64,000 nt of DNA from assembly GCA_964625685.1 (NCBI GenBank), contig CAZVBO010000001.1, forward strand, positions 153,570 through 217,569. The letters run 5' to 3'. Position numbers and translations under genes: made by a program. The notes beneath the pieces were generated by a model, which saw nothing but the letters and a program-made list of their open reading frames with translations, made no database searches and was not told the DNA's origin. This document shows, one piece after another, positions 2,232-63,350 of the stretch; position 1 is the first letter of the stretch, and the number at the start of each line of letters is the position of its first letter. The DNA comes from an uncultured Pseudomonadales bacterium (GTDB lineage Bacteria; Patescibacteriota; Microgenomatia; UBA1400; PJMF01).

Positions 2232-2780
2232 ATGGCTGACTTACAATCGTATCCAGCAAAAATCTGTTTGACTGCTTCAGGTACTTTAATTTACCATAAT
2301 AAAATTTTATTGATTAAACACAAAAAAGTTCAATTATGGATGTGTCCCGGTGGACATATGGAACCTAACGAACTGCCTCACCAAGCCGCCGAACGAGAGT
2401 TCTGGGAAGAGACCGGAATTAAAGTAAAAGCACTTCATTATGGTTTTCAACCTGACAATGCTCTTACCGAATTCTTACCCATTCCGATCTCAACTAATCT
2501 ACACTGGGTGTCTCAGGAAAACTATCAACGTCGTCTTAAAAATCCATCTCATTTTCAAGCCGAGGAAATGTGGGTAAAAGGTTGTGAGCAACATTACAAT
2601 CAAAATTACCTAGTTGAGCCGCTAGCCGGAGTAGATTTTTCGCAAAATGTAGAAGAAACCGATGGCATTGCTTGGTTCTCCCAAGATGAAATCTCTGAGC
2701 TAAAAACGGGAGCTCAAATTCAATTAGAAATTAGGAATGCTTTTGAAAAGTATCACCACTATGTCACTGACCATTCATAA
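2232..2780 (+). CDS. NUDIX hydrolase
   Basis: Nudix box GGHMEPNELPHQAAEREFWEETGI (GX5EX7REUXEEXGU). Confidence 0.8.
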   Translation: MADLQSYPAKICLTASGTLIYHNKILLIKHKKVQLWMCPGGHMEPNELPHQAAEREFWEETGIKVKALHYGFQPDNALTEFLPIPISTNLHWVSQENYQRRLKNPSHFQAEEMWVKGCEQHYNQNYLVEPLAGVDFSQNVEETDGIAWFSQDEISELKTGAQIQLEIRNAFEKYHHYVTDHS

Positions 2781-3543
2781 TCTCCAAGCCAAAATTGATG
2801 ATAAGCAGATTCTTAAAGGAGTGGATCTTGAAGTAAATAAAGGTGAAATTCACGCCATCATGGGTCCAAATGGTTCTGGTAAATCCACTTTGGCTAATGT
2901 CTTAGCAGGCAACCCTTTTTATAAAATCCAAACTTCAAATTCCCTGCCTGCGCAGGCAGGCAAAATTCAAAAAGAGGAGATGACTCTCGACGGAATAGAT
3001 TTGCTGGACTTGTCTCCTGATGAGAGAGCCCAACGAGGCTTATTTTTAGCTTTTCAATACCCAGTAGAAGTTCCTGGTGTTAGTGTCGAACGATTCCTGC
3101 GGGAAGCCTATCGAGCTCGAATAGGTGAAACAGCAAAAAAAATGTCAGCTCTCGAATTTCGCCAGTATGTTGAGGGTTTGGCAGAAGAACTGCATGTTAA
3201 ACCAGAATTGCTGAAGCGCGGCCTAAATGAGGGTTTTAGTGGAGGTGAGAAAAAGAGATTAGAAATTTTGCAAATGGCAGTCTTACAGCCTGAGTATGCC
3301 ATCTTAGATGAAACAGATTCTGGGTTAGACATTGATGCAATCAAGGCTGTTGCTGATGGTGTCAAAACCGTTATCAAAAAATACCAAACTGGAGTAATCA
3401 TTATTACTCATTATCAACGAATTCTTGATTATATTCAGCCTGATTTTGTGCATGTGATGATTGATGGGCAAATTGTAAGAAGTGGTGATTTTAGCTTGGT
3501 AGGTGAATTGGAAAGTAGTGGCTATGGGAATTTAAAGGCTTAA
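2761..3543 (+). CDS. sufC: Fe-S cluster assembly ATPase SufC
   Basis: Walker A GPNGSGKST, ABC signature FSGGEKKR and Walker B ILDETDSGLD. The gene lies directly upstream of sufB. The start was chosen at the internal ATG (MSLTIHNL) to avoid overlap with the NUDIX gene. Confidence 0.9.
   Translation: MSLTIHNLQAKIDDKQILKGVDLEVNKGEIHAIMGPNGSGKSTLANVLAGNPFYKIQTSNSLPAQAGKIQKEEMTLDGIDLLDLSPDERAQRGLFLAFQYPVEVPGVSVERFLREAYRARIGETAKKMSALEFRQYVEGLAEELHVKPELLKRGLNEGFSGGEKKRLEILQMAVLQPEYAILDETDSGLDIDAIKAVADGVKTVIKKYQTGVIIITHYQRILDYIQPDFVHVMIDGQIVRSGDFSLVGELESSGYGNLKA
2943..2960. repeat. 18-bp perfect palindrome CCTGCCTGCGCAGGCAGG inserted in-frame within sufC
   Basis: The exact palindrome recurs at 14073-14090 and 53503-53520. 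Here it encodes the extra segment SLPAQAGKI in the loop after the Walker A region. Confidence 0.8.
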
Positions 3544-3546
3544 GTT

Positions 3547-4974
3547 ATGTCTCGGTTTGCTCAAAAACATACTCCTAAATTTGACCCTCAAAAAAATGAT
3601 AAGTATGAGTTTGGTTTTTCGTATCCGACGGCTGCATATAAGTATATTTCTCAACCAGGCCTCAATGAGCAAGTGGTTAGAGAAATTTCTCATCTGAAAG
3701 CAGAACCAGAATGGATGCTGAAGTACCGTCTCCAAGCTTTGAAATTATTTGAAGCGAAAGCGATGCCAATGTGGGGGGCGGATCTGACAGCGATTGATTT
3801 TGACAAAATTCATTACTATCTACGACCTACGGACACTCAGGTTGATTCGTGGGAAAAGGTTCCCCCTGAAGTTAAAGCCACTTTTGATAAACTGGGTATC
3901 CCAGAAGCCGAGAGAACTGTTTTAGCAGGAGTTAAAGCCCAATATGATAGTGAAGTGGTGTATGGCTCATTACAAAATGTGTGGGCGAAAGACGGTGTGA
4001 TTTTTTTATCGATGGATGAAGGCTTGAAGCAATATCCAGATTTGGTTAAAGAGTATTTTGGAAAAGTGATTCCTCATGGTGATAATAAATTTGCAGCTTT
4101 GAATTCTGCCGTTTGGTCAGGTGGCTCTTTTGTGTATGTCCCAAAAGGCGTTCATGTCAAAATGCCGCTCCAAACTTACTTTCGAATCAATGCCGCTAAT
4201 GCAGGTCAGTTTGAGCGAACTTTGATTATTGTAGATGAAGGAGCGTCTGTCCATTACATCGAAGGTTGTACCGCGCCTAGTTTTGCCAGTAGTTCTCTTC
4301 ATTCAGCAGTCGTAGAAATTTTTGTTAAAAAAGGGGCTCGTTGTCAGTACACCACCGTTCAGAATTGGTATAAAAATGTATACAACTTAGTGACAAAGCG
4401 TTCGTATGTGGAAGAAGAAGGCCAAATGATTTGGACTGATTTCAACATGGGTAGTCAAGTGACCATGAAGTACCCTAGTTTTATTTTGGCGGGCAAAGGG
4501 GCCAAAGGTGAAGTGCTGTCGATGGCTTTGGCGGGAAAAGGTCAGCATCAGGATACTGGTTCCAAAGCAATCCATTTAGCCCCTTATACCAGTTCAACCA
4601 TTATTTCTAAGTCTATTAGTAAAGATGGTGGCCGCACCAGCTATCGGGGGTTGGTCAATGTGGGGCCACATGCTCACCATAGCCAGAATACGGTGGTCTG
4701 TGATGCTTTATTACTTGACCCACAATCTCGGTCAGATACCTATCCGACTGAAAAAATTTTTAATTCAAATGTCGCTGTGCAACATGAAGCTACCGTTTCT
4801 AAAATTGGAGATGACCAGCTTTTTTATTTAATGAGTCGTGGGATTGGTGAGGAAGCGGCTCGTAAAATGATTGTGAATGGCTTTATTGATGACTTGGTCA
4901 AAAAACTACCTTTAGAGTATGCGGTAGAGATGAATCGATTAATTGACTATGAGATGGAGGGGTCGATAGGATAG
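3547..4974 (+). CDS. sufB: Fe-S cluster assembly protein SufB
   Basis: A 475-aa protein with SufB/SufD beta-helix core motifs, sitting between sufC and the sufD-like gene. Confidence 0.9.
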   Translation: MSRFAQKHTPKFDPQKNDKYEFGFSYPTAAYKYISQPGLNEQVVREISHLKAEPEWMLKYRLQALKLFEAKAMPMWGADLTAIDFDKIHYYLRPTDTQVDSWEKVPPEVKATFDKLGIPEAERTVLAGVKAQYDSEVVYGSLQNVWAKDGVIFLSMDEGLKQYPDLVKEYFGKVIPHGDNKFAALNSAVWSGGSFVYVPKGVHVKMPLQTYFRINAANAGQFERTLIIVDEGASVHYIEGCTAPSFASSSLHSAVVEIFVKKGARCQYTTVQNWYKNVYNLVTKRSYVEEEGQMIWTDFNMGSQVTMKYPSFILAGKGAKGEVLSMALAGKGQHQDTGSKAIHLAPYTSSTIISKSISKDGGRTSYRGLVNVGPHAHHSQNTVVCDALLLDPQSRSDTYPTEKIFNSNVAVQHEATVSKIGDDQLFYLMSRGIGEEAARKMIVNGFIDDLVKKLPLEYAVEMNRLIDYEMEGSIG

Positions 4975-4989
4975 GAGGTGGCGTCATTT

Positions 4990-5066
4990 TGTCATTCCGG
5001 CGGAGGCCGGAATCTATAATATTTTTGCAAAATAAGGTATGGATGCCGACTTTCGTCGGGATGACA
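4990..5066. repeat. MITE-like palindromic element, copy 1 (subfamily B)
   Basis: Sequence TGTCATTCCGGCGGAGGCCGGAATC...GATGCCGACTTTCGTCGGGATGACA. It has TGTCAT/ATGACA termini and two internal hairpins, and is intergenic between sufB and the sufD-like gene. Confidence 0.75.
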
Positions 5067-5079
5067 TTTTAAAGCAACT

Positions 5080-5571
5080 ATGAAACAGAGCAAAATTATT
5101 CTTTCCACAGATGAAGAGAAAACAGTTATTCTCAAAGAATCGGGAGAATATGTATTTGAGTTGACTGGCCCTGGGGCTGAGTTAGAAGTGAAAGGGACCT
5201 TTTTAGCTAAGGATAAAGAAAACCAAGAAATCATTGTGATTATTCGACATTTAGCGCCTCATACTCGGGCTAACACAGTCCTCAAAGGTGTGGCTCAAGA
5301 TAAAGGTCAACTAAGGTTTGTCGGTCGAATTATCATTGATAAAAATTGTGGTGATACCCAATCATTTTTGGAGGAACGGGTATTATTGTTGTCAGATGAG
5401 GCTAAAGCCGAAACGGTCCCAGATTTAGAAATTGAAAGTGATGATGTCAAATGTTCTCATGCGGCCTCGATTAGTCGAATTCCCGACGAGCAGCTATTTT
5501 ATCTTCAAAGCCGAGGAGTGAGTAGGTCACAGGCTGAAAAAATGATTGTAGAGGGGTTTCTCAAGGTTTAG
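5080..5571 (+). CDS. Short SufD-like protein (SufBD family C-terminal domain)
   Basis: A 163-aa ORF after sufB whose C-terminus (QLFYLQSRGVSRSQAEKMIVEGF) parallels the SufB C-terminus (QLFYLMSRGIGEEAARKMIVNGF). Confidence 0.6.
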   Translation: MKQSKIILSTDEEKTVILKESGEYVFELTGPGAELEVKGTFLAKDKENQEIIVIIRHLAPHTRANTVLKGVAQDKGQLRFVGRIIIDKNCGDTQSFLEERVLLLSDEAKAETVPDLEIESDDVKCSHAASISRIPDEQLFYLQSRGVSRSQAEKMIVEGFLKV

Positions 5572-6885: not shown

Positions 6886-7269
6886 GTGAGTGAAAATATG
6901 AAAAAAACTCTTAATTCCTATAAAGAACTTGATGTATATAAGAAATCAATTATTTTAGTGAGTTCAATTTACCAACTAACTAGAATGTTTCCTGAAGAAG
7001 AAAAATATGGTTTGATTTCTCAAATGAGAAGAGCTGCAGTATCAATTCCACTGAATATAGCTGAAGGAGCAAAAAGACAGACAACAAAAGAATTTATCCA
7101 TTTTTTTGTATGTAGCGAGTGGCTCCTGTTCTGAGATACAAGCAATATTTGATGTTGTCTCCGCTTTAACAATGGTTGATGAAAATATTAAGAGTGAATA
7201 TGAACAAAAGCTAGAGGAAATTGCTCGAATGTTAAACGGTTTAATTCATAGTTTAAAGGCTAAACGATA
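6886..7269 (+). pseudogene. Four-helix-bundle protein (TIGR02436-like), interrupted by a +1 frameshift in a T7 run near 7100-7106
   Basis: The 82-aa ORF ends ...EFIHFFVCSEWLLF*. Shifting one base at the T7 run restores the family-typical continuation IHFLYVASGSCSEIQAIFDV...IHSLKAKR, ending at 7269. Confidence 0.5.
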
Positions 7270-14063: not shown

Positions 14064-14122
14064 TCTGGCTTTCCTGCCTGCGCAGGCAGGCGCCAGATGT
14101 CTCCTCTTTAATAAGAGGAGAT
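14064..14122. terminator. Twin palindromes between convergent genes; the first contains the CCTGCCTGCGCAGGCAGG unit
   Basis: ATCTGGCTTTCCTGCCTGCGCAGGCAGGCGCCAGAT followed by TCTCCTCTTTAATAAGAGGAGA. They lie between the 3' ends of the PfkB kinase (+) and the Lon-like ATPase (-). Confidence 0.5.
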
Positions 14123-21036: not shown

Positions 21037-21443
21037 GGGGATGTATTGCTTTGACGTAATACGCACTTTAACATCTGCAAACCGTCTTTGATCAAAGACG
21101 TTAAACAGGTCACTTACAATAACTGGCAATATGCTCAGTAAAGTCCGTGATATGGCTGGTAGAGCTTTAGCTGCTATCAATCCATTCATGGATCCAAATT
21201 TTGCTTCCGTAGAAGCTTAACTAGGCATTCATGCTTTTACTCTCACTGATGGTAAAGTATGGGTGAAAACTCAGTCAGTGTGACATGAGTAAATTGGTAC
21301 GATTGCTCATTAAGATATAGTACCGGGGAAGGAGACACAGTTTGTTGTTTTACTGGCTTTTTCTTTAGACTCAAAGAACAACTAAGTTTGTAGATGATGT
21401 TATTTTGACTATTGCGGACGCGGGTTCATTACTCGCCATCTCC
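21037..21443 (+). ncRNA. ssrA: tmRNA (ssrA)
   Basis: The 5' GGGGAUGUAUUGCUUUGACG and 3' GGACGCGGGUUCAUUACUCGCCAUCUCCA match the E. coli tmRNA ends (GGGGCUGAUUCUGGAUUCGACG ... GGACGCGGGUUCAACUCCCGCCAGCUCCACCA). The acceptor GGGGAUG pairs with CAUCUCC. An internal ALAA-encoding GCUUUAGCUGCU is present. A promoter-like TTGAAT/TATAAT lies just upstream. Confidence 0.8.
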
Positions 21444-21484
21444 ACACTTCGACTTAATTTTCTTTCTTTACGAAGAAACTTGCT

Positions 21485-36234: not shown

Positions 36235-36570
36235 ATGAATGAAAATCGATTAAAAGTTCTATTTGTTTGTTCTCATAATCAGTGGCGAAGTCCTACAGCT
36301 GAAAAATTCTATGCTAGGGATGATAGGCTGGAAGTACGATCAGCCGGAACTAGCAGTTGTGCTCGGCATACTATTTCTATTCGTGATGTTAAATGGGCTG
36401 ACCTGATTTTGTGTATGGAATCAAAACATGTAGAACTGTTGAAACAACGATTTTCTGCTTTACCAGAGATAGAATCACTCGATATTTCCAATGAGTATCA
36501 TTATGGTGACTTAGAATTGATTGAAGAAATCTATGTAAAAACAGAATTGATTTTAGAAGGCCTAGTTTAA
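36235..36570 (+). CDS. Low-molecular-weight protein-tyrosine phosphatase / ArsC-like (LMWPc fold)
   Basis: VLFVCSHNQWRSPTAE is the CX5R(S/T) P-loop. A downstream D likely corresponds to the DP general-acid motif. Confidence 0.65.
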   Translation: MNENRLKVLFVCSHNQWRSPTAEKFYARDDRLEVRSAGTSSCARHTISIRDVKWADLILCMESKHVELLKQRFSALPEIESLDISNEYHYGDLELIEEIYVKTELILEGLV

Positions 36571-37023
36571 GACTAGAATACTTAAATTAAGAATGCCGGC
36601 GAAACTGACCCACAAGATATACGGTAACAGCAGATAAGCCGCCCATTTGTCTTGGCGGAGACTTCGGCGAATCAAGACCACGATTGAAATCCACAAAGCG
36701 ATGATGCCGACTAAGCCCAAGAGTGGTGATTGTAAACCAAAGAAGAGAACTGACCACAGAATATTAAGTCCCAGTTGGATAAAAAAGAGTTTGATAATTG
36801 GCTGTTTCTTTTTGCCTTTTTTGATCCAAAACAGATACAAAAAAATTCCCATTAAGGCGTAGAGCGTAGTCCAAACTGGGGCAAACACCCAACTGGGAGG
36901 GGTAATAGTAGGTTTATTCAAAGTGTTATACCAAGTAGGAATATTGGGGGACGTGAAAAGTGAACCTGAGATTCCAGCAATTTGAGTTAAAGCGATGGCG
37001 CCAAAGAATTTTTTAAGATGCAT
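36562..37023 (-). CDS. tspO: TspO/MBR family tryptophan-rich sensory protein
   Basis: A 153-aa protein with 5 TM helices and W-rich conserved segments (WYNTLNKP, WVFAPVWTTLY). Confidence 0.8.
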   Translation of the reverse strand: MHLKKFFGAIALTQIAGISGSLFTSPNIPTWYNTLNKPTITPPSWVFAPVWTTLYALMGIFLYLFWIKKGKKKQPIIKLFFIQLGLNILWSVLFFGLQSPLLGLVGIIALWISIVVLIRRSLRQDKWAAYLLLPYILWVSFAGILNLSILVLN

Positions 37024-37195
37024 GAGACTCCTTTTTTGTATACTTCATTGTATCCATAAAGAGAGTGGCGATACAAGCCTTTTTTCTATTTTCTTTTCAG
37101 ATCCAGGCTTGATATTATAGTGATTGAGATCCCGAAATAAATTCGGGATGACAGTTTCTTAGTTTCAATTGTCATGCTGAACTTGTTTCAGCATC

Positions 37196-38470
37196 TTGAT
37201 ATTAATGATTGTGAAATTTATGAACATTCGACACATTTTACTGTGGTTTGGTTTATTATTCATTGCCTCACTCCTTCGTTTATGGCATTTAGACAGCTTA
37301 CCAGCGGTGGTTCACCGAGATGAGGCCTCGATTGGCTATAATGCTTATGCGATTGCTCAGACCGGCCACGATGAACATGGAGTGAGGTATCCGATTAATT
37401 TCCAAGCTTTTGGAGAGTATAAACTACCGGGTCTCATTTACTTGACAGTGCCTTTTGTGAAAATACTGGGACTCAATGAATGGTCCGTGCGATTGCCCAC
37501 AGCTCTTGCAGCTTTGCTCTGTTTGCCTGCTCTTTTTGGGTTAACAAAGGAAATGGGGTTTTCAAAGAAAGTGACTTGGCTAAGTCTGATTTTACTCACT
37601 TTTTCTTTTTGGCACATCACTCAAGCCCGGAATGCCTACGAACCAATGATCGGTTTACTCCTCAGTTTAGTGGCATTGAGTAGCTGGCTAAAAGGTTTGA
37701 AAAAAGGTCGATGGTTTATCTTATCACTGGTGGCATATGGATTAAGTTGCTGGTTTTATAATGTGCCCTGGTTACTTCTGCCGTTAGTATTTGGAGTTTG
37801 GAGTTTCATTGACTGGTTTCATCAACGAGGTAGCATTCGTTCAAAACTCCTGGCTCTCATTGCCGTAGGATTGGTAGCCCTAAGTGTAGGTTGGATATTG
37901 AGCGGAGTGAATGCCAGCCGGAGTGGGACTACCGTTTTTAGTAATCCCGAATTAATTGAAGAATCACAAACGTTAGTTCATGCTGGTTTAGTGGGCGGGT
38001 TGCCTTCGATTATTGCTCGAGGGGCACAGTATAAATTGGTTTTGGCGATAGTTAAAATCGGTCAGGGTTATTTAGCATCATTTAGTCCAACCTATCTTTT
38101 CTTTACTGGTGATGGCAATGCTTGGCATAATTTACAGTCGATTCAACTAGGGAATATGAATCCGGTTTTACTTGTTTGGATTGGGATCGGATTGTGGGGA
38201 GTAATTTCACAGTTAAAACAAAAATCCCACCAGTTATTATTAAGTTATCTGTTGTTAAGTCCAGTCTTAAGTGCGGTGACCGTCGACGCTCCAATTACCA
38301 ATCGATTGCTGGATTTCCATGTAGCGTTAATTATCGTTGCCGCCGTTGGTTTGAGCTGGTTGTGGGAAAGAACAAAACTTAACCAGTGGGCAAAAGGAGT
38401 TTTCATTACGTCGTTGATAGTGTATGTGGGGTTTGTTTGTTTATTTATTGAAAGATATCTTTATTTTTAA
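37196..38470 (+). CDS. GT39/ArnT-like (PMT_2) membrane glycosyltransferase, N-terminal main part
   Basis: HRDEASIGYNAYAIAQTGHDEHG...FGEYKLPGLIY is typical of GT-C family 39. Confidence 0.7.
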   Translation: MILMIVKFMNIRHILLWFGLLFIASLLRLWHLDSLPAVVHRDEASIGYNAYAIAQTGHDEHGVRYPINFQAFGEYKLPGLIYLTVPFVKILGLNEWSVRLPTALAALLCLPALFGLTKEMGFSKKVTWLSLILLTFSFWHITQARNAYEPMIGLLLSLVALSSWLKGLKKGRWFILSLVAYGLSCWFYNVPWLLLPLVFGVWSFIDWFHQRGSIRSKLLALIAVGLVALSVGWILSGVNASRSGTTVFSNPELIEESQTLVHAGLVGGLPSIIARGAQYKLVLAIVKIGQGYLASFSPTYLFFTGDGNAWHNLQSIQLGNMNPVLLVWIGIGLWGVISQLKQKSHQLLLSYLLLSPVLSAVTVDAPITNRLLDFHVALIIVAAVGLSWLWERTKLNQWAKGVFITSLIVYVGFVCLFIERYLYF

Positions 38471-39008: not shown

Positions 39009-39042
39009 GTGTTCGTAGTTTCATTTTGATAACAAATTATTA

Positions 39043-39116
39043 TGTCATCCTCGCGCACGCGGGGATCTGGGATATTGGTTGTGTTTTTCCAGATTCCCGC
39101 TTTCGCGGGAATGACA
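39043..39116. repeat. MITE-like palindromic element, copy 2 (subfamily A)
   Basis: TGTCATCCTCGCGCACGCGGGGATCTGGGA...CCAGATTCCCGCTTTCGCGGGAATGACA. Confidence 0.75.
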
Positions 39117-39124
39117 AATAGAAG

Positions 39125-39634
39125 TTAGTACTTCCGACTATCATACGCCCAGTGGAGAAGGGCTTGGCGTTGTTTACGGCGGCAGTCAAAGTCACCTGTA
39201 TGGCAGTTGGCTTTGAGTTGACCTAAGTGGCGGCGAAAGGCTTTCCAACGGTTAATTTGACGTTCATCTTCGTTTGGAATTCTTCTCCCCATGTAATATC
39301 GGCAGTACCATTGGAACCAACCTCGGGGATCTTCCTCATAAATCCAACCTTTTTGTTGCCAGACGGAGAGGGGTTGGCTGGCGTTGATTTTGAAAAAGTT
39401 GAGTGCTGGGTCGTGAAATTCGTGGCAAAGTTTAGCTTTAGTGTACCAGTCAGCAGGAAACTCTTTAGCACAATCAGTCATATACTTGCCACCAAAGACA
39501 CCCAGTTCGAGCATTTGTTGGGGGATGAGATCAGGTTTGAAGTCTGAGTCAAAGTGTTTGCCCATCGGTTCATTGAGCACATATTTATAATTGCGTTGCA
39601 TCAGGTCATTGACGACCACAATTTGGTTTGCCAT
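39125..39634 (-). CDS. Hypothetical Cys/Trp-rich protein, possibly Zn-binding
   Basis: A 169-aa ORF (GWFQWYCRYYMGRR, CHTGDFDC) with no family recognised. It is flanked by a MITE copy and tRNA-Ser. Confidence 0.5.
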   Translation of the reverse strand: MANQIVVVNDLMQRNYKYVLNEPMGKHFDSDFKPDLIPQQMLELGVFGGKYMTDCAKEFPADWYTKAKLCHEFHDPALNFFKINASQPLSVWQQKGWIYEEDPRGWFQWYCRYYMGRRIPNEDERQINRWKAFRRHLGQLKANCHTGDFDCRRKQRQALLHWAYDSRKY

Positions 39635-50872: not shown

Positions 50873-50912
50873 CACAATTGTTTTATGTTAAGGAATAGTT
50901 TACGATTAAAGT

Positions 50913-51482
50913 ATGACCTTTCTGGTAGGAGTACTATTTCTCGGACTGTTGGCAATTATTCTTTATTTAGCTCATCAAAGTGTTCAAGTTGTAAGCCAAT
51001 TATCACCTGTTGATGACTTGCAACCCATTGATGAACTTGAGACTCAGTGGAGTGAGTTCTATGGCAAAAGAGACTACATGATGTCTCAGGCAGAACACAC
51101 TTTATTTTACTTACTTTGTCAGTTATATGCCGATCAGTACTTCATTTTTCCTCAAGTAAAATTAGATAAAATTTTTTATGTTAAATCTCCTTTTAAATAC
51201 CAACATCAATATCTGAATCATATTGATCGAAAGTCAGTTGATTTTTTATTGTGTCAGAAAAATCCAGTTAGACCTGTGGTGGCGATTGAACTAGATGATC
51301 ATTCTCATCAAACTGAAAAGAGGAAAGCCAGAGATAAATTTGTAGAGGCTTTATTTTCTACCACTCAACTACCTTTGGTTCGTATTCCTTGTCAACCAGT
51401 TTATGCTTTAGAAGCATTAAAAGAATGTATTGATCCGAGTTTGAGTTTATGTCAATCGGAAGTAACAATTAGAGATTACTAA
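50913..51482 (+). CDS. DUF2726-like protein (PD-(D/E)xK nuclease fold)
   Basis: FPQVKLDKIF ... VDFLLCQK ... VVAIELDDHSH ... RDKFVEALF matches the DUF2726 core (FP.V.L..., IELDD.SH). It has an N-terminal TM helix. Confidence 0.55.
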   Translation: MTFLVGVLFLGLLAIILYLAHQSVQVVSQLSPVDDLQPIDELETQWSEFYGKRDYMMSQAEHTLFYLLCQLYADQYFIFPQVKLDKIFYVKSPFKYQHQYLNHIDRKSVDFLLCQKNPVRPVVAIELDDHSHQTEKRKARDKFVEALFSTTQLPLVRIPCQPVYALEALKECIDPSLSLCQSEVTIRDY

Positions 51483-51711: not shown

Positions 51712-52296
51712 TTATTGAGCTGCTTGAATAAGAGTTGTTGTAGCACTGCGAAGACTTTGAAGTGCGCTTTGAAAATCGGCTCGAGCTGCCATTGCTAAAT
51801 CTCGGGCAGCTAGAGCCTGGTCTCGTTGTTCCTCATATTTGTCGGGATCAACGGCTTCAAATTGAGCTACTGCTTTTGCCCCTTTGTCACTGGCACTCGC
51901 AATCAAACTTCGAGCAGTGGCGATGTCAGCTTTAGCTTCACTGGTATCTGTCCCATTTTGTGACATCTCTGCTATCTTGGCATCAAGTCGATCAGCAAAT
52001 TTGGTGAGTGAATCAGTATAGTATTGAAATCTTCTCTCTAACCGGTAGGCATGACTTTGGGCAATCGTAGACCGTCGCTGTTGCATAGTATCTTGAACAT
52101 TGTCTCGCATCTCTTGCCGGTTTTCTTGGATATCAGTTCGTGTTTCTTGTCTGTCTTGTTGAAGTTCTTCTCTATTTTCTATTCTTTGATCCACTCGTTC
52201 TTGGCGAGGGGTTTGAGCAGCAGTAGTTAGGGGGAGTAATAGGGAGCTTGCCAGCAAGGTGCTAACTACCCCTAAGGTTAGAGAAAGTTTTGGCAT
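51712..52296 (-). CDS. Secreted coiled-coil protein
   Basis: A signal peptide followed by a Q/R/E-rich heptad-like sequence. Confidence 0.4.
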   Translation of the reverse strand: MPKLSLTLGVVSTLLASSLLLPLTTAAQTPRQERVDQRIENREELQQDRQETRTDIQENRQEMRDNVQDTMQQRRSTIAQSHAYRLERRFQYYTDSLTKFADRLDAKIAEMSQNGTDTSEAKADIATARSLIASASDKGAKAVAQFEAVDPDKYEEQRDQALAARDLAMAARADFQSALQSLRSATTTLIQAAQ

Positions 52297-52457
52297 ACGT
52301 CCTTTCGGGTTATTTTATAAATATCTCAATTCTTCCTGAGTTTCAACTGAGATTAGAATGACTCCTTCTTTTCTTTTCAACATAAAAAATGAGTTAGAGT
52401 TGTGTAAGGATTGATTTACAGCTGACATTTATAATTAATTTTTATCATAATAGAGAT

Positions 52458-53471
52458 ATGATTTCGAAAGTAATTGGCACCTGTGTGGCTGGAGCGGCGG
52501 TAGCCGGAACTATGTATTGGAACCATTGGTCGGCTCGTCATGGTGATGTAGTAGCACCTACTCCAGATACATCTGATGAAGTAACTGAAACGAGTCCTTC
52601 GCCCTCGCCTTTTCCGACTCCCACACCGGTAACTGATCTAAAATGGGGGGCCTATGTAGGTTGGCAGGAAGGAGCCTTAGCCCAATTTGAATCTTTAGTA
52701 GGCAAGCCAGTCGACATGGTGGCTGATTTTGTTCATTGGGGGAATGAACGTGATTTTCCAATGCAGTATGCAGAAATTGCCCGGGATCAGGAGAAGGTTC
52801 TAGTGATCTATTGGGAAGTAAAAGACTATAATTTTGAGGGACCGAATGATCCTCGTTTTAGTTATGATGCTATTTTAGCTGGAAATTGGGATAGCTATAT
52901 TGATCAGTTTGCGGCAGATGCGGCTGTTTATGATGGACCAGTAATTTTACTACCATTTAATGAAATGAATGATAATGTTTCTCCGTGGAGTGGTACCCAA
53001 AATGGCAATTCTCCGGAAAAACATATCTTAGCCTTTCGTTATTTGAGAGATCGATTTCGCACTGTAGCCCCCAATGTTAAGTTTGGGTGGGCAGTGAACA
53101 GTTTATCAGTGCCTGATGAGCCGGGTAATAAGATTGAGGAATATTATCCTGGTTCTGAGTATGTTGATTATGTAGGAGTGGATGGTTTTAATTTTGGTGA
53201 TCCGTGGCAATCTTTTGATGAGGTTTTCGCTCCGGCTTTATCAGTCTTAGTTCAGTATCAAAAACCGATTTATCTTTTTTCGATGGGATCACGAGATGGG
53301 AGTCAAAAAGCCGAGTGGATCAGAGAAGGTTTAGGTCAAGCGGTCCATCACTACCCGGTTTCTGGATGGATTTGGTTTAATGAGAATAAGAGTGAGAATG
53401 GGGAGTATGATTGGCGGGTGAATTCTGATCCGGCTTCATTAAATGCGTTTAGAGAAGTGATTCCGGAGTAA
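52458..53471 (+). CDS. Glycoside hydrolase, clan GH-A (GH26-like)
   Basis: A (beta/alpha)8-type layout with WG.Y, a NE acid/base candidate in LLPFNEMND, and W-rich substrate-binding segments. Confidence 0.45.
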   Translation: MISKVIGTCVAGAAVAGTMYWNHWSARHGDVVAPTPDTSDEVTETSPSPSPFPTPTPVTDLKWGAYVGWQEGALAQFESLVGKPVDMVADFVHWGNERDFPMQYAEIARDQEKVLVIYWEVKDYNFEGPNDPRFSYDAILAGNWDSYIDQFAADAAVYDGPVILLPFNEMNDNVSPWSGTQNGNSPEKHILAFRYLRDRFRTVAPNVKFGWAVNSLSVPDEPGNKIEEYYPGSEYVDYVGVDGFNFGDPWQSFDEVFAPALSVLVQYQKPIYLFSMGSRDGSQKAEWIREGLGQAVHHYPVSGWIWFNENKSENGEYDWRVNSDPASLNAFREVIPE

Positions 53472-53489
53472 ATGGGAAGTCACAGTCTT

Positions 53490-53581
53490 CGTCATCCTCG
53501 CGCCTGCCTGCGCAGGCAGGAATGCGGTGATCTGGAATGGCACAACCAATTTTCCAGATTCCCGTGTACACGGGAATGACA
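53490..53581. repeat. MITE-like palindromic element, copy 3 (subfamily A, carries the CCTGCCTGCGCAGGCAGG palindrome)
   Basis: GTCATCCTCGCGCCTGCCTGCGCAGGCAGGAATGCGGTGATCTGGAATGG...CCAGATTCCCGTGTACACGGGAATGACA. Confidence 0.75.
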
Positions 53582-53658
53582 AGCAAATGAGGTTTTACTT
53601 GTGGGTTTTATTTTCTTACTTGCATCAGTTTTGCTGTAAGTAACATAAGCGAGTAGTT

Positions 53659-55457
53659 TTAAAACAAGGCAATTCCCTCAGTTACTGTTTTAACAGGTAC
53701 ACTACTGGCATTGAGGTAATCGACTATATTTTGCAACATACCGGGTGTAGTCCCATAATCACTGTCGCTGGTATCTACTTGATGAAAGGTGAGGATCAAC
53801 CAGGTGTGATTGGCTTTGGCAGTGTCAATCCAGGATTTAACTTCATCCAAGGTAGTGGTGGACTCAATATTTTGAGTCAGTAAGCCATAACGGTCGGTTG
53901 ATTTAGTGTTATAACCTACTTGGACAGTTCGGGCTGAGGTTAAACCTGAGTCTTGGGCGAACTGTTCAATTTGAGCATTATAGTCTCCATAAGGATAGGC
54001 GAGGCTACGAATTTGACTAATACCAATTTGAGTTAAGTCTAAATTAGCTCCGCTAATCTGTTCTTGGGCGGCGCTGGGCTCAATCGAGATGAGGGAAGGG
54101 TGAGTTTCGGTATGATTTCCAATCTCGTGACCTGCTGTTTGCATGGCTAAAATTTGATCTTTAGTCACATAGGTGTTAATACCGAGTGAAGCGTTATCAA
54201 GAGTGAGATAGCCTACCGAATCAAGCAAGTGGAAAACAGTCACTGACTTGGCATCAACTGGCACATAGAAAGTTCCAGTGAAATCTGCCCAAGTAGCTGA
54301 GGCCTGAGCAGTGCCAACATCATCATAGTAGACAGTGTTATCAGTTCGGGTAATCTGCACTACGACTCGGGTTTCGGTGTCACTTTGATATTGATCACTG
54401 AAAGTGTAGATTTGATCAACCAGAACTGGGACATCAGCAAAGTACCACTTAGCGTCTCCATCGGTCCAACTTGACATTTCGACTTTGACCGCCTTAGAGT
54501 CACTGACTCCGGTGACTGGATAAGAGAAAGTGGCAGTGTTGGTTCCCCAATTACCGGTAAACCAATCGTCGGGTTGGTTATTACTATCGGCATCAATCTC
54601 CAATTCATTATTTTCCGGATTGGCATATTGATTGAGTTTGGTCACGATGTAAAAGGTTCCTTTAACTCCAGCATTGTTGAGAATGGGCATAACTTCTTCA
54701 TAGTGGGACAACCACCATCATCAAAGGTCAGTGAGACAAAGCCTTCATCGAATGTATCTGCACTAGGACTCGGGCTGGGTTCTACTGACGGGCTAGGAGT
54801 TGGCTCTAGACTGGGAGAGGGTGAAGGTTCGGGAGTTGGTTCAACCGAAGGGCTAGGAGTTGGTGAGGGGCTGGGAAAAGGAGTTGGAGATGGTTCTGGT
54901 TCTGATACTGAAGAAAGTGAGTAGTTATCAACTACTAAGGTGCCTTTGGTACTCAACACATGAAGCATAGTCATCGAGACTGTCCCTGCAGGTGGAGTAA
55001 AGTTTACGGTGGTTGTTTGCCAGGTTGAAGATCTAGGGAGAGCTTGTAATTGAACATACACTAATTGCCCATTACTTTTTCGGTATTGAGCGATGATGTA
55101 AGTTCTAGCTGTTGAAGTATAGCTATCTTGAAATACGTACTCCTCACCTGGATTAACGGGCACATCTTGAAATTGCCACTTCGCATCTCCACTACGATAG
55201 CTAGTGATTTTGACTTGAGCAGCTTTTTGCCCGTTCACTCCAGCCACAGGGTAGGTGAAAGAAGCATTGTTACTCCCCCATTTGTCTTTAATCCAAAAGT
55301 CAGGATTATTATCAAAATTGGCATCTACTTCAAAAGAAGGATTGAGGATGGCATTGTTGCCTTCAGCTAAAGCATGACTACTAAAGATTCTTCCCAGAGC
55401 CAATAATGATAAAAAGAAGAATGATACTAGTGGCATGATTTTAATGGGGTTCTTCAT
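53659..55457 (-). pseudogene. Secreted polysaccharide deacetylase (NodB/CE4) with two CBM-like domains; a single-base frameshift near 54705-54712 splits it into 326-aa and 350-aa ORFs
   Basis: The upstream ORF ends LTFDDGG (NodB motif 1 TFDDG). The downstream ORF continues SHYEEVMPILNNAGVKGTFY and later HTETHPSL and LAYPYGDYN. Restoring one T (GGTGGTTG to GGTTGGTTG) gives TFDDGWLSHYEE. Confidence 0.65.
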
Positions 55458-56004
55458 ATAAAAGGTGGGCTGGTGTTTCAGCACAAGAAGCCAGTTCTTG
55501 GCTATATTTACTTTGTAGTGAATGTAAGATTTGCAAATTCTGTTCAGCCGAACCGCTATAATTTTCGATTCCCATACTCTGAGCCAAAGCAACTCTAGAT
55601 TCAAAGTTAGCTTTTTCTCCAAGAGTTTTTAGATAGTTCACCACCGAATTAGTTTTTTGAAGAACTTGAAGTTGGTCATAGAGCTCACAATTGATATCAG
55701 TTATGCCTAAAACCACACTTGAATTTACAACTTCTGGATCTTGCTGAGTGTTATCGGCTAAAGTTGAAAACTTATCTGGTGAAACTTGAAGTTCGGACTG
55801 AGCTGGTAACTGAGATTGGCTTGCTAAGAACTTGCTTTGATTTTTCACTTCTTGGACTTCCTGATTCAATTCATGAATTTCACTCGCTAATAAAATAGGT
55901 GAAGAATGCTTTTCGGTGACAACAGCATAAACAATACTACTCGCACTTGGTAAAATAACCAGGGAAACTAACGAGACGATGGTGAGACCATGATGATATT
56001 TCAT
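55444..56004 (-). CDS. Secreted hypothetical protein
   Basis: A 187-aa ORF with a signal peptide, Q/S-rich. Confidence 0.4.
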
Positions 56005-56109
56005 AAATCTAGAATTTTATCCGATGTAAATACATTTTTACTTTATGTGAGGCAATAATAGCCAGGTGAATTACTACGGAAAATCCAAATAAAGGCATGA
56101 ATGGCATAA

Positions 56110-57136
56110 TTAGACGTACTCCATATGTTTTCTCTCTGGTTTAAACCATTGTAAGGTTCTTTTTTTCCAGAGTGCTTCTACTACAAACTGTTCTAAGAAA
56201 ATGTAGGCGTTCACATAGAGTAAGAACATACAAGGAATGGGAACGAGGATAAGATCCCACCGTTTGGCTTTATGAGCTGCCCAGACACCAAACACAAAAG
56301 CAGCGAGCATGTAGCTTAACAGTAACCAAATTCCTAACCAGATATTTAAAATGGGAACAATAAACATCAAAATGGAAAAAGTCACCCCTTCGACATAGAT
56401 GAGTGAAAGCTCAAACGCTTTGACGGGATGTTCAATGATGTGGTGGTGTTTGAGTAAGTTTTGCCAGCCACCTCCATACCAACGACGCATTTGATTAATA
56501 TAAGAAGAAAGAGTACTGGGGTCTTGAGTATAGGAAATGATTCGGCGATCATAAATAATTTTGAGACGCTTGTGATGGAGTTTATAGGTAAAGTCTAAAT
56601 CTTCAGTAATCGTATCGTGATCAAAGCTAATATGATCTTTGAAGGCTTGAGTTCGAAAGGCACTGGCTGCACCCGGCATCACAAACATGTAATTCAAATA
56701 GCTTTGAGCCAACTTATGAATATTTTGTCCTATGGTGTATTCAAAGGCTCGACACAGAGTTAACCAGTTATAGGGAAGACTAGATACGTAACCAGAAACA
56801 GCGACCACACTTTTTTCTGCAAAATCTTTGGCGATAAGTTCACCAAATCGATGGTCTAGAATGGTATCCGCATCGGTAGTAACGACAACGTCTCCAGTTA
56901 CAAACTGCAATCCATATTCTTGAGCATGACTTTTATTACCAGTATTTTGGGGAGTTTTTTAACAACTATTTTTTTTGTTGAGCATACTTACGTAAAATCT
57001 TGGCCGTTCCATCAGTTGAAGAGTCATTGACGAAGACCAACTGGTCAAATGGTCGGGTTTGATGAAGGCACGATTGAATACAAGCTTCGACCGTTTGTTC
57101 TTCATTATAGACCGGTACGAGAATCGAAATTTCCAT
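56110..57136 (-). pseudogene. Family-2 glycosyltransferase split into an N-terminal 79-aa piece and a C-terminal 266-aa piece at A8 and A6 homopolymer runs (56955-56985)
   Basis: N piece ILVPVYNEE...FVNDSSTDGT. C piece GDVVVTTDADTILD (DxD) plus C-terminal TM helices. Two frame changes are needed to join them. Confidence 0.55.
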
Positions 57137-57299
57137 AAATAAAAGTAGTAAATTTGGTGTATCTACAGGCAAATATAGGTTCTCACGGAAACAAATGTGT
57201 GTCAATTACACATCAATCTTTTGGACAGGTTTTTATTACAATTTTTTGTCGCTTTAATTGGTGAAAGTATAATTACGGAAGTAATCTTTGCAAAAATGT

Positions 57300-58163
57300 T
57301 TAGGTAAATTCAGCTAAACTCGGTTCAATGTTGACTGTTGGCGTCCATTGGTTGATCAAAGTATTAGTTTGAAATTGAGGTAAGTGTTGGTGATACGGTA
57401 CTGATTCTGGATTTTGATAAAAAATTCCTAGCGGAAATTTTTCAGTTTCTAAGGAACGAGTCAAAGCGGCCATTTTATCTTGAGGATTATGATTAACTTC
57501 GGTTAAATCGTAAATTCTTTCGGCAAACCAAGGATGGGTATGATCTTTATTAAAGGTTGGACACAACTGCATAACGTCTACCAAAGCAAAGCCTGAATGG
57601 GTAATAGCAGCTTTCATTAATTGAAGTAATTGTGGAATTTTGGCACTATACCCACGAGAGACAAAACTGGCATTGGCTGCTAGAGCCATATGAATTGGAT
57701 TAAATGGAGTATCAATTACCCCAAACGGAGTGGATTTAGTTTTCGTACCTTCATCGGTAGTAGGTGAACTTTGACCCGTAGTTAAACTGTATCGTTCATT
57801 ATTATGAATAATTAAAGTCAAGTCATGATTCCCCCGAGCTACAGATAAAAAGTGACTTAAGCCTTCACCATACATATCACCGTCACCTGCAATCACAATA
57901 ATTTTCAGATTATGATTGGCTAGCTTAGCTCCCAAAGCACTGGCCAAAGCTCGACCATGAAGTCCATGGAAGCCATAGCAGGTGTTAAAGTCAGCCATAT
58001 TGCCGCTACAACCAATCCCATAAAAGATAACCGTATTCTCAGCTTCCAACTCCAGTTCCGTAATCGCCTTTTGTAAAGTGTTGAGAATTAAAAAATCACC
58101 GCAACCTGGGCACCAGGTTGGAGCAATGGGTGATTTAATAGAAGCGGCAGTAAAACAAGACAT
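57300..58163 (-). CDS. korB: 2-oxoacid:ferredoxin oxidoreductase, beta subunit (TPP-binding)
   Basis: WCPGCGD and the GDG...NN TPP-binding motif. Confidence 0.85.
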   Translation of the reverse strand: MSCFTAASIKSPIAPTWCPGCGDFLILNTLQKAITELELEAENTVIFYGIGCSGNMADFNTCYGFHGLHGRALASALGAKLANHNLKIIVIAGDGDMYGEGLSHFLSVARGNHDLTLIIHNNERYSLTTGQSSPTTDEGTKTKSTPFGVIDTPFNPIHMALAANASFVSRGYSAKIPQLLQLMKAAITHSGFALVDVMQLCPTFNKDHTHPWFAERIYDLTEVNHNPQDKMAALTRSLETEKFPLGIFYQNPESVPYHQHLPQFQTNTLINQWTPTVNIEPSLAEFT

Positions 58164-58166
58164 AGA

Positions 58167-59906
58167 TTATTGAGTTAAATTAGCTAGTAATTCGGTAATA
58201 TCTTCCACATAAAAGGGGCGACCATCATAACGACGAATATGATGATTAAACGTAAGGCCAGTTTCTTGACGAATTAACTTTTCCGCCTGACCTGATCCAT
58301 TTCCTTCTACCATCACCAGCATTTTGGCTTGTTGAGTCAATTTGGTGAAACTTTCAACCGGAAACGGCCATAAGCACGGCAGATGAATTACATTCACACT
58401 GGGTTGTTGACTTGATCTCTCAGTAAGTAACTGAGATAAGACATTGACTGTTGATCCCCAACTGACTAAGGTAATATCCGCAGTTTCTGGGCCTAACACC
58501 ACTGGTTGAGGAAGCTCAGCTTGAATCCCGTCCAGTTTGTGGGCTCGTTTTTCCACTTGATGAATGGTCATAGCAGCATCTTCAGTGGCAAAACCAAACT
58601 GATCATGTTCATATGAGTTGGTCAACTGTAAACCATGCGCTTGTCCGGGAACAGATCTGGGTGAAATTCCATTTTTGGTGAGTTGATAGCGACGGAAAGA
58701 GTCATCTTCAGGCAGCTTGTCCACCATACTTTGGTGAGGTGAATGAGCTTCAACCTTAGGGGTGGTCATGGTTTGATGTGACTCCAAAATAAATTTGTCA
58801 CTCAAAATGAAAACTGGAATTTGATATTTCTCAGCTAAATAAAATGCCTTTTTGGCCAATTCAAAGTGCTCTTCGACTGTTCCGGGGGTTAGGACCACTC
58901 GTTGAATGTCTCCATGACCAGCTGTTAATACGAAACTGAGATCAGCTTGTTCAGTCCAAGTAGGCAGACCAGTGGCGGGGCCTTTACGTTGGGCTTCTAA
59001 AATTACCAGTGGAATCTCCGCAATACTGGCAAAGGAAACTCCTTCAACCATTAGTGCAAATCCGCCGCCGGAGCTACCAGTCATAGCCCGAACTCCAGCA
59101 AAGGAAGCACCCAACGCATTATTAATGGCTGCAATTTCATCTTCGGCGTGTTTGACCACTAAGGGGTAGTTTTTTTGTTGGTCAGCTAAAAAGTGGAGCA
59201 GGCCAGATGCGGGGGTCATGGGATAAGCTGAGTAGAACTGAACCCCTGCTTGAATTGCTCCCAAGCCAATGGCTTCATTTCCCGAAATTAAAATTTTATC
59301 ATCTGCCTGGGTGGGGATCGTCATCAACGGTTTGCCCAACTGTTGAGCTGCTTGAAACCCAGCTTCTAAAGCCTTGAGATCTGCTTCCACAATTTCATCC
59401 TTTTTATCAGCAAACTCATCTCGGACAGCTTGCCGAGCAATCTCCATATCAAAGCCTAAAAAGTAGGCGGTGACCCCTAAGACCACGATATTCATGGCTA
59501 ATAAGTTTCCGGTCACATCTTTCGAAATGGTATAAAAAGGGACCTGCAAAAACTGTCCGTGGGGAATGTCGTATTTGGTAATGTCTACCGGGATCGCGTT
59601 GGTGTTATAGATGATAATGGTTTGATCGGTGGTTTCATCCTTATGTTCTGTTAAACCTTCTGGCCCGAGTGTAATCAGGAGATCTAGATTACGTTTCTGA
59701 CAGAGAGCAGATTGGCTATTGGCAAAAACTTGTCCTGTCTGATGTCCTCCTTTGATGAGAGAGGGGTACTCTAAGTAGTCAAAGGCATTGAGACCATGAC
59801 GTTTACAGATTTTAGCGACCATTTTGGACAGGGCCATCACCCCTTCACCGGCTTTACCGGCGATTTTCCAATTTAAAGAAACGGGAGAGTTAGTAGCTTC
59901 TGTCAT
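58167..59906 (-). CDS. korA: 2-oxoacid:ferredoxin oxidoreductase, alpha subunit with an N-terminal gamma-like domain
   Basis: The N-terminal 180 aa resemble the POR/KOR gamma domain (IAGKAGEGV). They are followed by the alpha-subunit transketolase-like domains. Confidence 0.8.
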   Translation of the reverse strand: MTEATNSPVSLNWKIAGKAGEGVMALSKMVAKICKRHGLNAFDYLEYPSLIKGGHQTGQVFANSQSALCQKRNLDLLITLGPEGLTEHKDETTDQTIIIYNTNAIPVDITKYDIPHGQFLQVPFYTISKDVTGNLLAMNIVVLGVTAYFLGFDMEIARQAVRDEFADKKDEIVEADLKALEAGFQAAQQLGKPLMTIPTQADDKILISGNEAIGLGAIQAGVQFYSAYPMTPASGLLHFLADQQKNYPLVVKHAEDEIAAINNALGASFAGVRAMTGSSGGGFALMVEGVSFASIAEIPLVILEAQRKGPATGLPTWTEQADLSFVLTAGHGDIQRVVLTPGTVEEHFELAKKAFYLAEKYQIPVFILSDKFILESHQTMTTPKVEAHSPHQSMVDKLPEDDSFRRYQLTKNGISPRSVPGQAHGLQLTNSYEHDQFGFATEDAAMTIHQVEKRAHKLDGIQAELPQPVVLGPETADITLVSWGSTVNVLSQLLTERSSQQPSVNVIHLPCLWPFPVESFTKLTQQAKMLVMVEGNGSGQAEKLIRQETGLTFNHHIRRYDGRPFYVEDITELLANLTQ

Positions 59907-60150
59907 GTCACAGGTACTATAGTATATTTTTGGTTGATTGCAAAGCAGAGAAGAAAGTTACTGGTGACTAGATTCATAGGTCGCAACCAACGAGGAACGC
60001 TGCGGAGTGATATCTTTTTGGTGTCGTTCGATCCCCAAAAAGATCACGTCCTTCACTTATTGCTAGGTTAACAATCTCATAACAAGAGTGTTTATCCAAG
60101 AAAATTAATTTTTTTTGAACACTTTCCATTCATTATTTGTTAGTCAGATT

Positions 60151-60230
60151 CGTCATCCTCGCGAAAGCGGGGATCTGGGAAATAAACAGTTTAGTAGTTT
60201 TTACAGATTCCTGCTTTCGCAGGAATGACA
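60151..60230. repeat. MITE-like palindromic element, copy 4 (subfamily A)
   Basis: CGTCATCCTCGCGAAAGCGGGGATCTGGGA...CAGATTCCTGCTTTCGCAGGAATGACA. Confidence 0.75.
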
Positions 60231-60261
60231 TATCAATAATCTTTGAAGTTTCTAGGCAAGA

Positions 60262-60320
60262 CACTAAACGTTAGCCATTTAGATTTTGGAATTTGGACTT
60301 TGAAATTTAGACTTTGAAAT
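60262..60320. repeat. Short AT-rich tandem repeats (GACTTTGAAATTTRG, 3-4 units) in the divergent promoter region
   Basis: GATTTTGGAATTTGGACTTTGAAATTTAGACTTTGAAATTTGGATTTTG. A related inverted arrangement occurs at 31478-31560 and a weaker one at 2186-2215. Confidence 0.5.
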
Positions 60321-60347
60321 TTGGATTTTGCCCACTATACTAGAGGA

Positions 60348-61280: not shown

Positions 61281-61282
61281 CT

Positions 61283-62077: not shown

Positions 62078-62152
62078 TTAAATCAAACTTTTTACTTGAA
62101 TAGGAACTTGAATCTTTATCCAGTATTTGTACAATAAGCGGCATACATACAA

Positions 62153-62303
62153 TATCCTTCAGGGTCGGGTGAAATTCCCAACCGGCGGTAATTCCACAGT
62201 TTTTGGAACAGCCCGCGAGCGCTCTGTAGTTACATACTTCGGAGGTCAAGCAGATCTGGTGAAATGCCAGAGCCGACGGTAAAGTCCGGATGAAAGAAGG
62301 TTC
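62153..62303 (+). promoter_or_regulatory. FMN riboswitch (RFN element) aptamer
   Basis: GGGUGAAAUUCCCAACCGGCGGUA, AGCCCGCGAGC and GCCGACGGUAAAGUCCGGAUGAAAGAAGG closely match the B. subtilis ribD RFN (GGGUGAAAUUCCCGACCGGCGGUAGUAAAGC...AGCCCGUGACC...GCCGACAGUGAAAGUCUGGAUGGGAGAAGG). The P1 helix is CCUUC/GAAGG. Confidence 0.85.
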
Positions 62304-62360
62304 AATAACACTTAGTTGGTAAGTGTTATTGTTGATAGTGAATTCATAATTCACTTTTCT
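62304..62360 (+). terminator. Riboswitch expression platform: a 10-bp hairpin (62304-62330), then an intrinsic terminator GTGAATTCATAATTCAC-TTTTCT (62338-62360)
   Basis: AATAACACTTagttggtAAGTGTTATT, then GTGAATTcatAATTCAC followed by a T run, then RBS GGAG and ATG at 62391. Confidence 0.6.
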
Positions 62361-62390
62361 GAAAATTCCCCCTGAAGAAAATGGAGCAAA

Positions 62391-63281: not shown

Positions 63282-63286
63282 TGGTT

Positions 63287-63316: not shown

Positions 63317-63350
63317 AATGTTTAGTGTTTATTGGTTAATTGTGTTGCAT

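Follow-up and report, generated by a model that had tools for sequence, protein, structure and literature searches.

Head-to-head CGTC-tagged REP dimers in a Patescibacteria chromosome and their probable action as single-stranded DNA hairpins for an Ssn-type nuclease

The DNA analysed here (the window) is a 64-kb stretch with a G+C content of 38-42%. Its host is, judged from sequence, a member of the Patescibacteria (candidate phyla radiation, CPR); the best named relatives of two housekeeping proteins were found in Candidatus Pacebacteria, Candidatus Woesebacteria and 'Patescibacteria group' MAGs, and contigs of the SRR136170xx metagenomes carry the window DNA at 99.3-100% identity. Several features were identified besides the repeats that are the subject of this study. 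A Gp49-like/HTH pair at 804-1440 is probably a HigB/HigA toxin-antitoxin system, and a gene of the 23S rRNA intervening-sequence protein family (6886-7134) lies between sufS and nifU-like genes. An inverted repeat at 60007-60047, upstream of the 2-oxoacid:ferredoxin oxidoreductase alpha gene, is kept in relatives at the 81-87% level with compensatory changes (GTGAT-CTTTTTGG/CCAAAAAG-ATCAC versus GATGACACTTTTTGC/GCAAAAAGT-GTCATC) and may be a regulatory hairpin. At 62151-62305, an FMN riboswitch (117.7 bits) was found ahead of an EamA-family gene (62391-63281), which probably encodes a riboflavin-related transporter and is followed by a small hairpin at 63302-63316.

The repeats had been described as five MITE-like palindromic copies, one of them a half copy. 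Four full copies and one truncated copy (c1 to c5) were indeed found where they had been placed, far above chance, and comparison with the window ORFs confirmed that every copy is intergenic. The head-to-head dimer c1 (4990-5066) lies between two co-directional suf genes (3547-4974 and 5080-5571). Its left unit (4990-5017, plus strand) reads TGTC ATTCCGGC GGAG GCCGGAAT C, and its right unit (5039-5066, minus strand) reads TGTC ATCCCGAC GAAA GTCGGCAT C with one C.C mismatch. Two head-to-head heterodimers, c2 (39043-39116) and c3 (53490-53581), are each located between convergent genes. The left unit of c2 (39043-39070, plus strand) has the stem ATCCTCGC/GCGGGGAT with a T.G wobble, and its right unit (39089-39116, minus strand) is TGTCATTCCCGCGAAAGCGGGAATCTGG. 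The left unit of c3 (53490-53535, plus strand) has a 21-nt loop insert including the 18-nt palindrome CCTGCCTGCGCAGGCAGG at 53503-53520, and its right unit occupies 53554-53581 on the minus strand; breakpoints of independent metagenome contigs fall inside this copy. A third heterodimer, c4 (60151-60230; left unit 60151-60178, plus strand; right unit 60203-60230, minus strand), also head-to-head, is placed between the divergent genes for the 2-oxoacid oxidoreductase alpha subunit (58167-59906, minus strand) and an ABC ATPase (60321-61280, plus strand). The last copy, c5 (63351-63440), is downstream of the riboswitch-controlled EamA transporter gene. It has an intact unit at 63351-63378 (plus strand) and a spacer; because c5 can be aligned with c1 past the intact unit, it probably represents a full dimer with a decayed right unit (about 63411-63440), rather than the half copy originally proposed.

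The significance of these copies was estimated by motif and hairpin counts. The shared end motif GTCATYCYNGCG, with at most one mismatch, occurred 9 times in the window versus 1.39 expected, and the right-arm motif GATTCCNGNNNNNNCNGGAATGAC occurred 5 times versus 0.03 expected. A hairpin scan of the window, requiring GTCAT and an 8-bp stem with at most one mismatch, returned 11 matches versus 0.34 in 200 dinucleotide-preserving shuffles; one of these matches, at about 50894-50916, looks like a chance hit. The scan also detected a sixth, divergent pair at 37126-37197 that had been overlooked, so that the count of five was too low. This pair is tail-to-tail, with its tags inward, between the divergent genes for TspO (36562-37023, minus strand) and a PMT-like protein (37196-38470, plus strand). 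Its units read TGTC ATCCCGAA TTTAT TTCGGGAT C (37126-37153, minus strand) and TGTC ATGCTGAA CTTGT TTCAGCAT C (37170-37197, plus strand).

Each of the supposed MITEs consists of two hairpin units of about 28 nt, inverted with their tags outside, around an AT-rich spacer of 18-36 nt (the 28-nt units are 18-24 nt apart and their stems 25-36 nt apart). Inverted ends exist as predicted, but they are really the outer halves of two separate hairpin units and not the terminal repeats of one element. A unit opens with the unpaired (C/T)GTC tag; the two arms of an 8-bp stem then enclose a loop of 4 nt, and an invariant C with a short tail follows the second arm. The tag is present in all 11 window units (9 TGTC and 2 CGTC), as are GTC before the palindrome and C right after it, and the first two stem pairs are A-T and T-A throughout. 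Perfect 8-bp stems were found in 7 of the 11. In canonical units the loop starts with G on the tag strand, and it is 4 nt long in 8 of 9, the exception being the left unit of c3 with its insert. The tails of the scanned canonical units are CTG (five), CCA (two) and CTA (one), and the left unit of c3, which falls outside the scan, has CTG. Both halves of a dimer retain the bases that define orientation (the tag, the 3′ C and the G-first loop), each on the strand of its own unit. Conservation between copies is limited to the units, the spacers being not alignable.

The division into two subfamilies was borne out. Subfamily A (c2, c3 and c4) is a heterodimer in which one side has ATCCTCGC/GCGGGGAT, including the T.G wobble, and the opposite side has ATTCCNGY; the stem of subfamily B (c1 and c5) is ATTCCGGC. 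The proposal that a whole element forms one long hairpin also agreed with folding, this being the best fold of every full copy with z-scores of -4.4 to -8.0; the central ATCTGG...CCAGAT pairing is made by two unit tails facing one another.

The palindrome in the loop of c3 was also found elsewhere in the window. Three exact copies of CCTGCCTGCGCAGGCAGG (2943-2960, 14073-14090 and 53503-53520) were counted versus 0.02 expected. One copy is in-frame within a sufC-like ATPase ORF (2737-3543), whose window allele is 11 aa longer than that of a co-occurring strain (L002), and one is centred in an intergenic hairpin ATCTGGC...GCCAGAT. Several metagenome contigs start or end close to the palindromes at 2943-2960 and 53503-53520. 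In an unrelated viral contig (L272, position 5636) the palindrome is likewise nested inside a CGTC unit; other viral matches are near the chance level for GC-rich DNA.

The original prediction had argued for selection on, or templated copying of, a folded structure from four paired substitutions in the second stem, three of which are perfect and one of which (GCCGAC/GTCGGG) contains a mismatch. Covariance was examined across many more copies. In a 134-unit alignment, changes on both sides were observed in 6 of 8 stem pairs, double-change cells numbered 138 versus 32 in shuffles, the observed score was reached by none of 500 shuffles, and sliding the partner column abolished pairing. The C after the stem was invariant in these 134 diverse units, although the scan did not require it. 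Because this alignment was pre-selected for hairpins, the fairer figures are those from 168 distinct units chosen on the 5′ half alone, by which circularity was avoided. Stem position 6 was Watson-Crick paired in 137 of the 168, with all four pair types represented (CG 79, GC 28, AT 15, TA 15), position 3 was paired in 140, and the base following the palindrome was C in 146. The claim of compensatory change therefore stands, such variation being genuine and marked in hundreds of copies that come from other genomes. Since stem pairs 3 and 6 vary freely yet stay complementary, the fold is what is kept. Wobble strand bias at interior stem positions (G.T versus A.C) was 8 versus 12, giving no signal that would separate selection on the RNA or tag strand from neutral change; the T.G of the subfamily-A left units is simply inherited.

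The REP-like character suggested at the outset was substantiated, the window repeats being a real family of folded palindromic units with the anatomy of CGTC-tagged REPs. In CGTC-tagged REPs the tag is CGTC or, often, TGTC, the stem has 8-9 bp and nearly always shows complementary A and T at its start, the loop measures 4-5 nt, and a tail of 3 nt resembles CCA; the units occur mainly as head-to-head dimers with tags outside, 20-100 bp apart and sometimes as heterodimers, without an associated transposase (Di Nocera et al., 2013; PMC3733652). The window elements show all the features of CGTC family 1 (CGTC-1) save the exact tail, where the opening C never changes and the following bases depart from CCA. 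They are thus members of this known family, the Neisseria form of which is equivalent to dRS3 (PMC3733652), and which is known as dRS3/NTS in Neisseria and as Ssn-related motifs (SRM) more generally. This affiliation had been missed, as had the partner enzyme Ssn shown in other bacteria (Chenal et al., 2025; PMC11893778). The dRS3 pattern (ATTCCC-N8-GGGAAT) gave two exact matches in the window, at 39093-39112 and 53558-53577, in the right units of c2 and c3, versus 0 expected; variation at stem positions 3-6 sets the remaining units apart. dRS3 was lengthened by Chenal et al. (2025) to the 28-nt NTS, CGTCATTCCCGCGMAVGCGGGAATCYRG (PMC11893778). Two window sites fit the N. meningitidis NTS consensus with 1 and 3 mismatches, versus 0 expected, and the better one is the right unit of c2, which agrees at 27 of 28 positions. 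The SRM motif HGTCWYN(0-2)YYVSBRHN(0-5)WNVSBRGN(0-2)RNCYNB matched 4 of 9 canonical units versus 0.13 in shuffles; the other 5, which include the subfamily-B units and some right units, fail this strict regular expression.

No Rfam match at gathering thresholds was obtained at any element. Below threshold, c2 was aligned end to end with WsnRNA46 (RF02625) and FtrB (RF02748) at 32.6 and 30.2 bits, the gathering thresholds being 65-66 bits. When compared with window positions 39022-39144, the consensus of WsnRNA46 (Wolbachia) and of FtrB (Francisella) is itself a CGTC-type head-to-head dimer. These 'sRNA genes' appear to be copies of the CGTC repeat family, and the resemblance of c2 to them lies in the common repeat and not in a conserved RNA gene.

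The distribution of the repeats in other genomes was also investigated. The general dimer pattern had at least 120 matches in viral contigs alone, where the copies take the form GTCATTCCCGCGAAGGCGGGAATCCA...TGGATTCCCGCCTTCGCGGGAATGAC. The recurrent ORFs near these 120 matches encode prohead protease, capsid, terminase and other head proteins of gene transfer agents or prophages, and no transposase was among the clustered ORFs. Because of these neighbours, the viral-contig copies are suggested to be of alphaproteobacterial origin. A pattern scan of 185,579 species genomes with the subfamily-A left arm returned 99 genomic stretches, about 75 of them in one 'Glaciecola sp.' MAG and the others in Saccharibacteria, Gracilibacteria, 'Patescibacteria group' and Rickettsiales MAGs and in Beta- and Gammaproteobacteria; the host genome itself was not among the matches. 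The CPR copies have the TGTC tag of the window and its heterodimer partner types. The 'Glaciecola' MAG (CAYURD01; L127-L225) contains at least 41 full, near-identical dimers of 112 nt. These dimers lie inside a larger composite, itself conserved, whose outer ends are CGTCATTCTCGCGAAGGCCTAATACTGTTCG, and where copies are paired 2.1 kb apart, only ordinary genes were found between them.

The enzyme known to act on such hairpins is well characterised in Neisseria. SsnA is a 94-aa single-domain GIY-YIG protein, the family being defined by CDD model cd10448. Its only substrate for binding and cutting is the forward strand of NTS as ssDNA; it acts on neither dsDNA nor RNA (PMC11893778). Both sequence and structure determine its activity: binding is governed above all by the C that follows the palindrome and cleavage by the three bases that precede it, and the loop may be lengthened, its identity not being needed (PMC11893778). 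Motifs are present near 71% of ssn homologues, and Ssn is encoded by 81% of genomes with more than 200 motifs (PMC11893778). Among loci fetched by the repeat pattern, a unit lies within 134 bp of 8 of 11 distinct Ssn-like ORFs. The Ssn-like gene of a Gracilibacteria MAG is placed between two heterodimers of the window's unit types. In the 'Glaciecola' MAG, such a gene (L147, 810-1124) is flanked, within 480-1400 of that contig, by its own unit type CGTCATCGTGGCGAAGGCCACGAC, which differs from the abundant subfamily-A left unit, and by five tandem half-units (CCACCGTCATCGTGRCAAC).

Within the host DNA that was searched (the 64-kb window and about 10 kb of extra flank, the other ~94% of the genome lying outside), an HMM built from Ssn-like proteins detected no Ssn-like ORF, even at E<=10 in the window. 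When a relative's Ssn was used as query for homologues, 25 matches were obtained, none of them attributable to the host genome. The host's two closest relatives (RNase J 84% and 75% identical) each have a gene for a single-domain GIY-YIG protein of 82-85 aa (PF01541), most similar among solved structures to the UPF0213 proteins 1ZG2 and 1YWL. The Ssn-like genes of these two relatives have no flanking canonical units, and the relatives carry about one unit per 20-40 kb; the link between enzyme and repeat is therefore shown for CPR generally and not for the host lineage. In the relative with 84% RNase J identity, the 85-aa Ssn-like gene comes immediately after the tmRNA gene (L239, 7440-8230). 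At the corresponding position the window has a DUF5677 gene on the opposite strand (21037-21447), and the tmRNA flank is a variable insertion spot.

Taken together, the window repeats are probably head-to-head CGTC-1 REP dimers acting as ssDNA hairpins for an Ssn-type nuclease. By analogy, the working form would be an ssDNA hairpin exposed during replication, repair or DNA uptake, and a nuclease of the Ssn family, small and with a single GIY-YIG domain, would bind the tag strand only and nick a few nt upstream of the tag. In N. meningitidis, such cutting lowers the integration of incoming repeat-bearing DNA. From the repeat-ssn-repeat layout it is suggested that an Ssn-type nuclease spread the repeats in the past or does so still. 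Two roles could thus be proposed, trimming of ssDNA and the spread of the repeats themselves, the grounds being Neisseria biochemistry and the IS-like layout. In the host genome the nuclease would have to be either encoded outside the window or lost, and if lost, the window copies would be fossils. Because SsnA needs sequence as well as structure, cleavage of the window variants is only putative. Directly upstream of c1, a partial duplicate of the tag and stem start is present at 4980-4989 (CGTCATTT before TGTCATTCC), and similar tandem half-unit duplications were seen in the 'Glaciecola' MAG (L132, L174, L206 and L214); such half-unit duplicates may have been left behind when DNA was cut and repaired immediately 5′ of the tag.

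A stronger form of the nuclease reading is that the dimers are non-autonomous mobile elements moved in trans by Ssn, spread between phyla as a module and serving as a filter on incoming ssDNA in DNA-scavenging CPR episymbionts, which we regard as unlikely at present. Copies c1, c4 and c5 were identical in all metagenome contigs spanning them. No target-site duplication was found, the flanks of the window copies sharing no direct repeat. c4 has no counterpart at the orthologous intergenic region of relatives with an 87% identical orthologous protein, a region too diverged in these relatives to define a clean empty site. A metagenome scan with SufS gave no relatives for an empty-site search, and an exact look-up of the PMT-like protein gave nothing. 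With neither a clean empty site nor a target duplication, mobility in the host genome is therefore unproven.

Action at the RNA level, by which transcribed dimers would serve as REP-like mRNA 3′ stabilisers, terminators or small RNAs, is compatible with a role at the DNA level but is in itself doubtful. The elements fold very stably on both strands, and c1, c2, c3 and c5 are downstream of at least one gene. Many REPs are transcribed, as argued by Di Nocera et al. (PMC3733652), and the sub-threshold matches of c2 point in the same direction, since an sRNA consensus made of CGTC dimers means that such dimers are transcribed in other bacteria. However, the idea of terminators was not supported: a T-run is absent from every element, and c3, c4 and c5 were not called in a terminator scan of 52000-64000 (c1, c2 and the 37126-37197 pair lying outside it). 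Two of the six elements, c4 and the 37126-37197 pair, are between divergent genes, and the EamA gene is followed by its own small hairpin ahead of c5. Moreover, the tag, the 3′ C and the G-first loop are kept per unit strand, while a single transcript would read one half of a dimer in the wrong sense, and the RNA version is not bound by SsnA (PMC11893778).

That the copies are inactive fossils, remnants of a past expansion that lost their partner nuclease and have no present function, seems improbable. Decay is visible in the right unit of c5 and in stem mismatches of the c1 right and c3 left units, the window has no Ssn, and c4 and c5 do not differ among all recovered metagenome strains. On the other hand, perfect stems are kept by 7 of 11 units and the tag and 3′ C by all 11, and the density of about one unit per 6 kb is above that of the relatives carrying Ssn-like genes. 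The missing nuclease must also be set against the ~94% of the genome that is outside the window.

Mobilisation as REPINs by a RAYT (an IS200/IS605-type Y1 transposase), a lead that came with the original prediction, was followed and is very improbable. The inverted-doublet architecture is that of REPINs, and a strand-specific enzyme recognising a hairpin is a principle common to both systems, but the tag is CGTC/TGTC instead of GTAG, no Y1_Tnp protein was found in the window or in any locus examined, and no RAYT is flanked by CGTC units in any species according to Di Nocera, De Gregorio & Rocco (2013; PMC3733652). Least credible of all is an origin as classical IS-derived MITEs, or as attachment sites of an IS110/Piv-type recombinase as for the Neisseria Nf phages: inverted ends of at least 12 nt, the use of dRS3 as a phage-recombinase target in Neisseria (PMC11893778) and the at least 41 near-identical 112-nt copies in the 'Glaciecola' MAG, which look like a recent burst, are outweighed by unrelated spacers or interiors between window copies, the lack of target-site duplications, viral-contig neighbours that are gene-transfer-agent or phage head genes and not transposases, and the failure to find a parent IS. 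Pfam scans of the window ORFs revealed no transposase, Y1 transposase, IS110-type recombinase or GIY-YIG protein, in agreement with the prediction that the elements are non-autonomous there.

The preferred reading, CGTC-1 dimers as probable substrates of an Ssn-type nuclease, places the window repeats neither in a new MITE class nor among RAYT substrates but with the CGTC-REP/NTS hairpins, which have a known partner enzyme. What is new is that the CGTC/NTS family reaches the Patescibacteria (a Microgenomates-like host, Saccharibacteria, Gracilibacteria and other CPR MAGs), that two unit types recur nearly unchanged across very distant phyla and that the repeat-ssn-repeat layout is exemplified in CPR. 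If movement by Ssn is true, it would be a transposition route outside every known transposase class, and unit types would be near-identical in Neisseria (27 of 28 nt), Beta- and Gammaproteobacteria and CPR classes because an Ssn-repeat module had passed between phyla. As CPR bacteria are believed to rely on DNA that they import, a repeat/nuclease pair that trims incoming single strands would be worth testing in them. The 'Glaciecola' MAG is the natural place to ask whether Ssn also spreads repeats.

REPINs presumably rely on a single chromosomal enzyme by which ssDNA hairpins are read. Like them, the window elements are non-autonomous and consist of short hairpins in inverted pairs, the whole folding as one long hairpin. 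REPINs and RAYTs differ in having a GTAG tag, an HUH Y1 transposase and species-specific sequences, in contrast to the GIY-YIG enzyme and the near-identical cross-phylum units considered here. With CGTC-1, the window units share the tag, the 8-bp stem starting with A and T, the 4-nt loop and the short unpaired tail, and the copies share the tags-outside dimers, some of them heterodimers, the intergenic location and the lack of a flanking transposase (PMC3733652). Their tails are mostly CTG and not CCA, their spacers are AT-rich, the Patescibacteria are absent from the five phyla listed as hosts, and one pair has inward tags, an arrangement called rare (PMC3733652). Compared with Neisseria, the window has neither an ssn gene nor large clusters around particular genes; about half of its units are outside the published SRM regular expression, and the enzyme-substrate relation is putative in the host lineage. 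As in NTS, however, the GTC tag and the C after the palindrome, which are critical for the enzyme there, are invariant in the window units, and the enlarged loop of c3 is of the kind tolerated by SsnA in vitro (PMC11893778).
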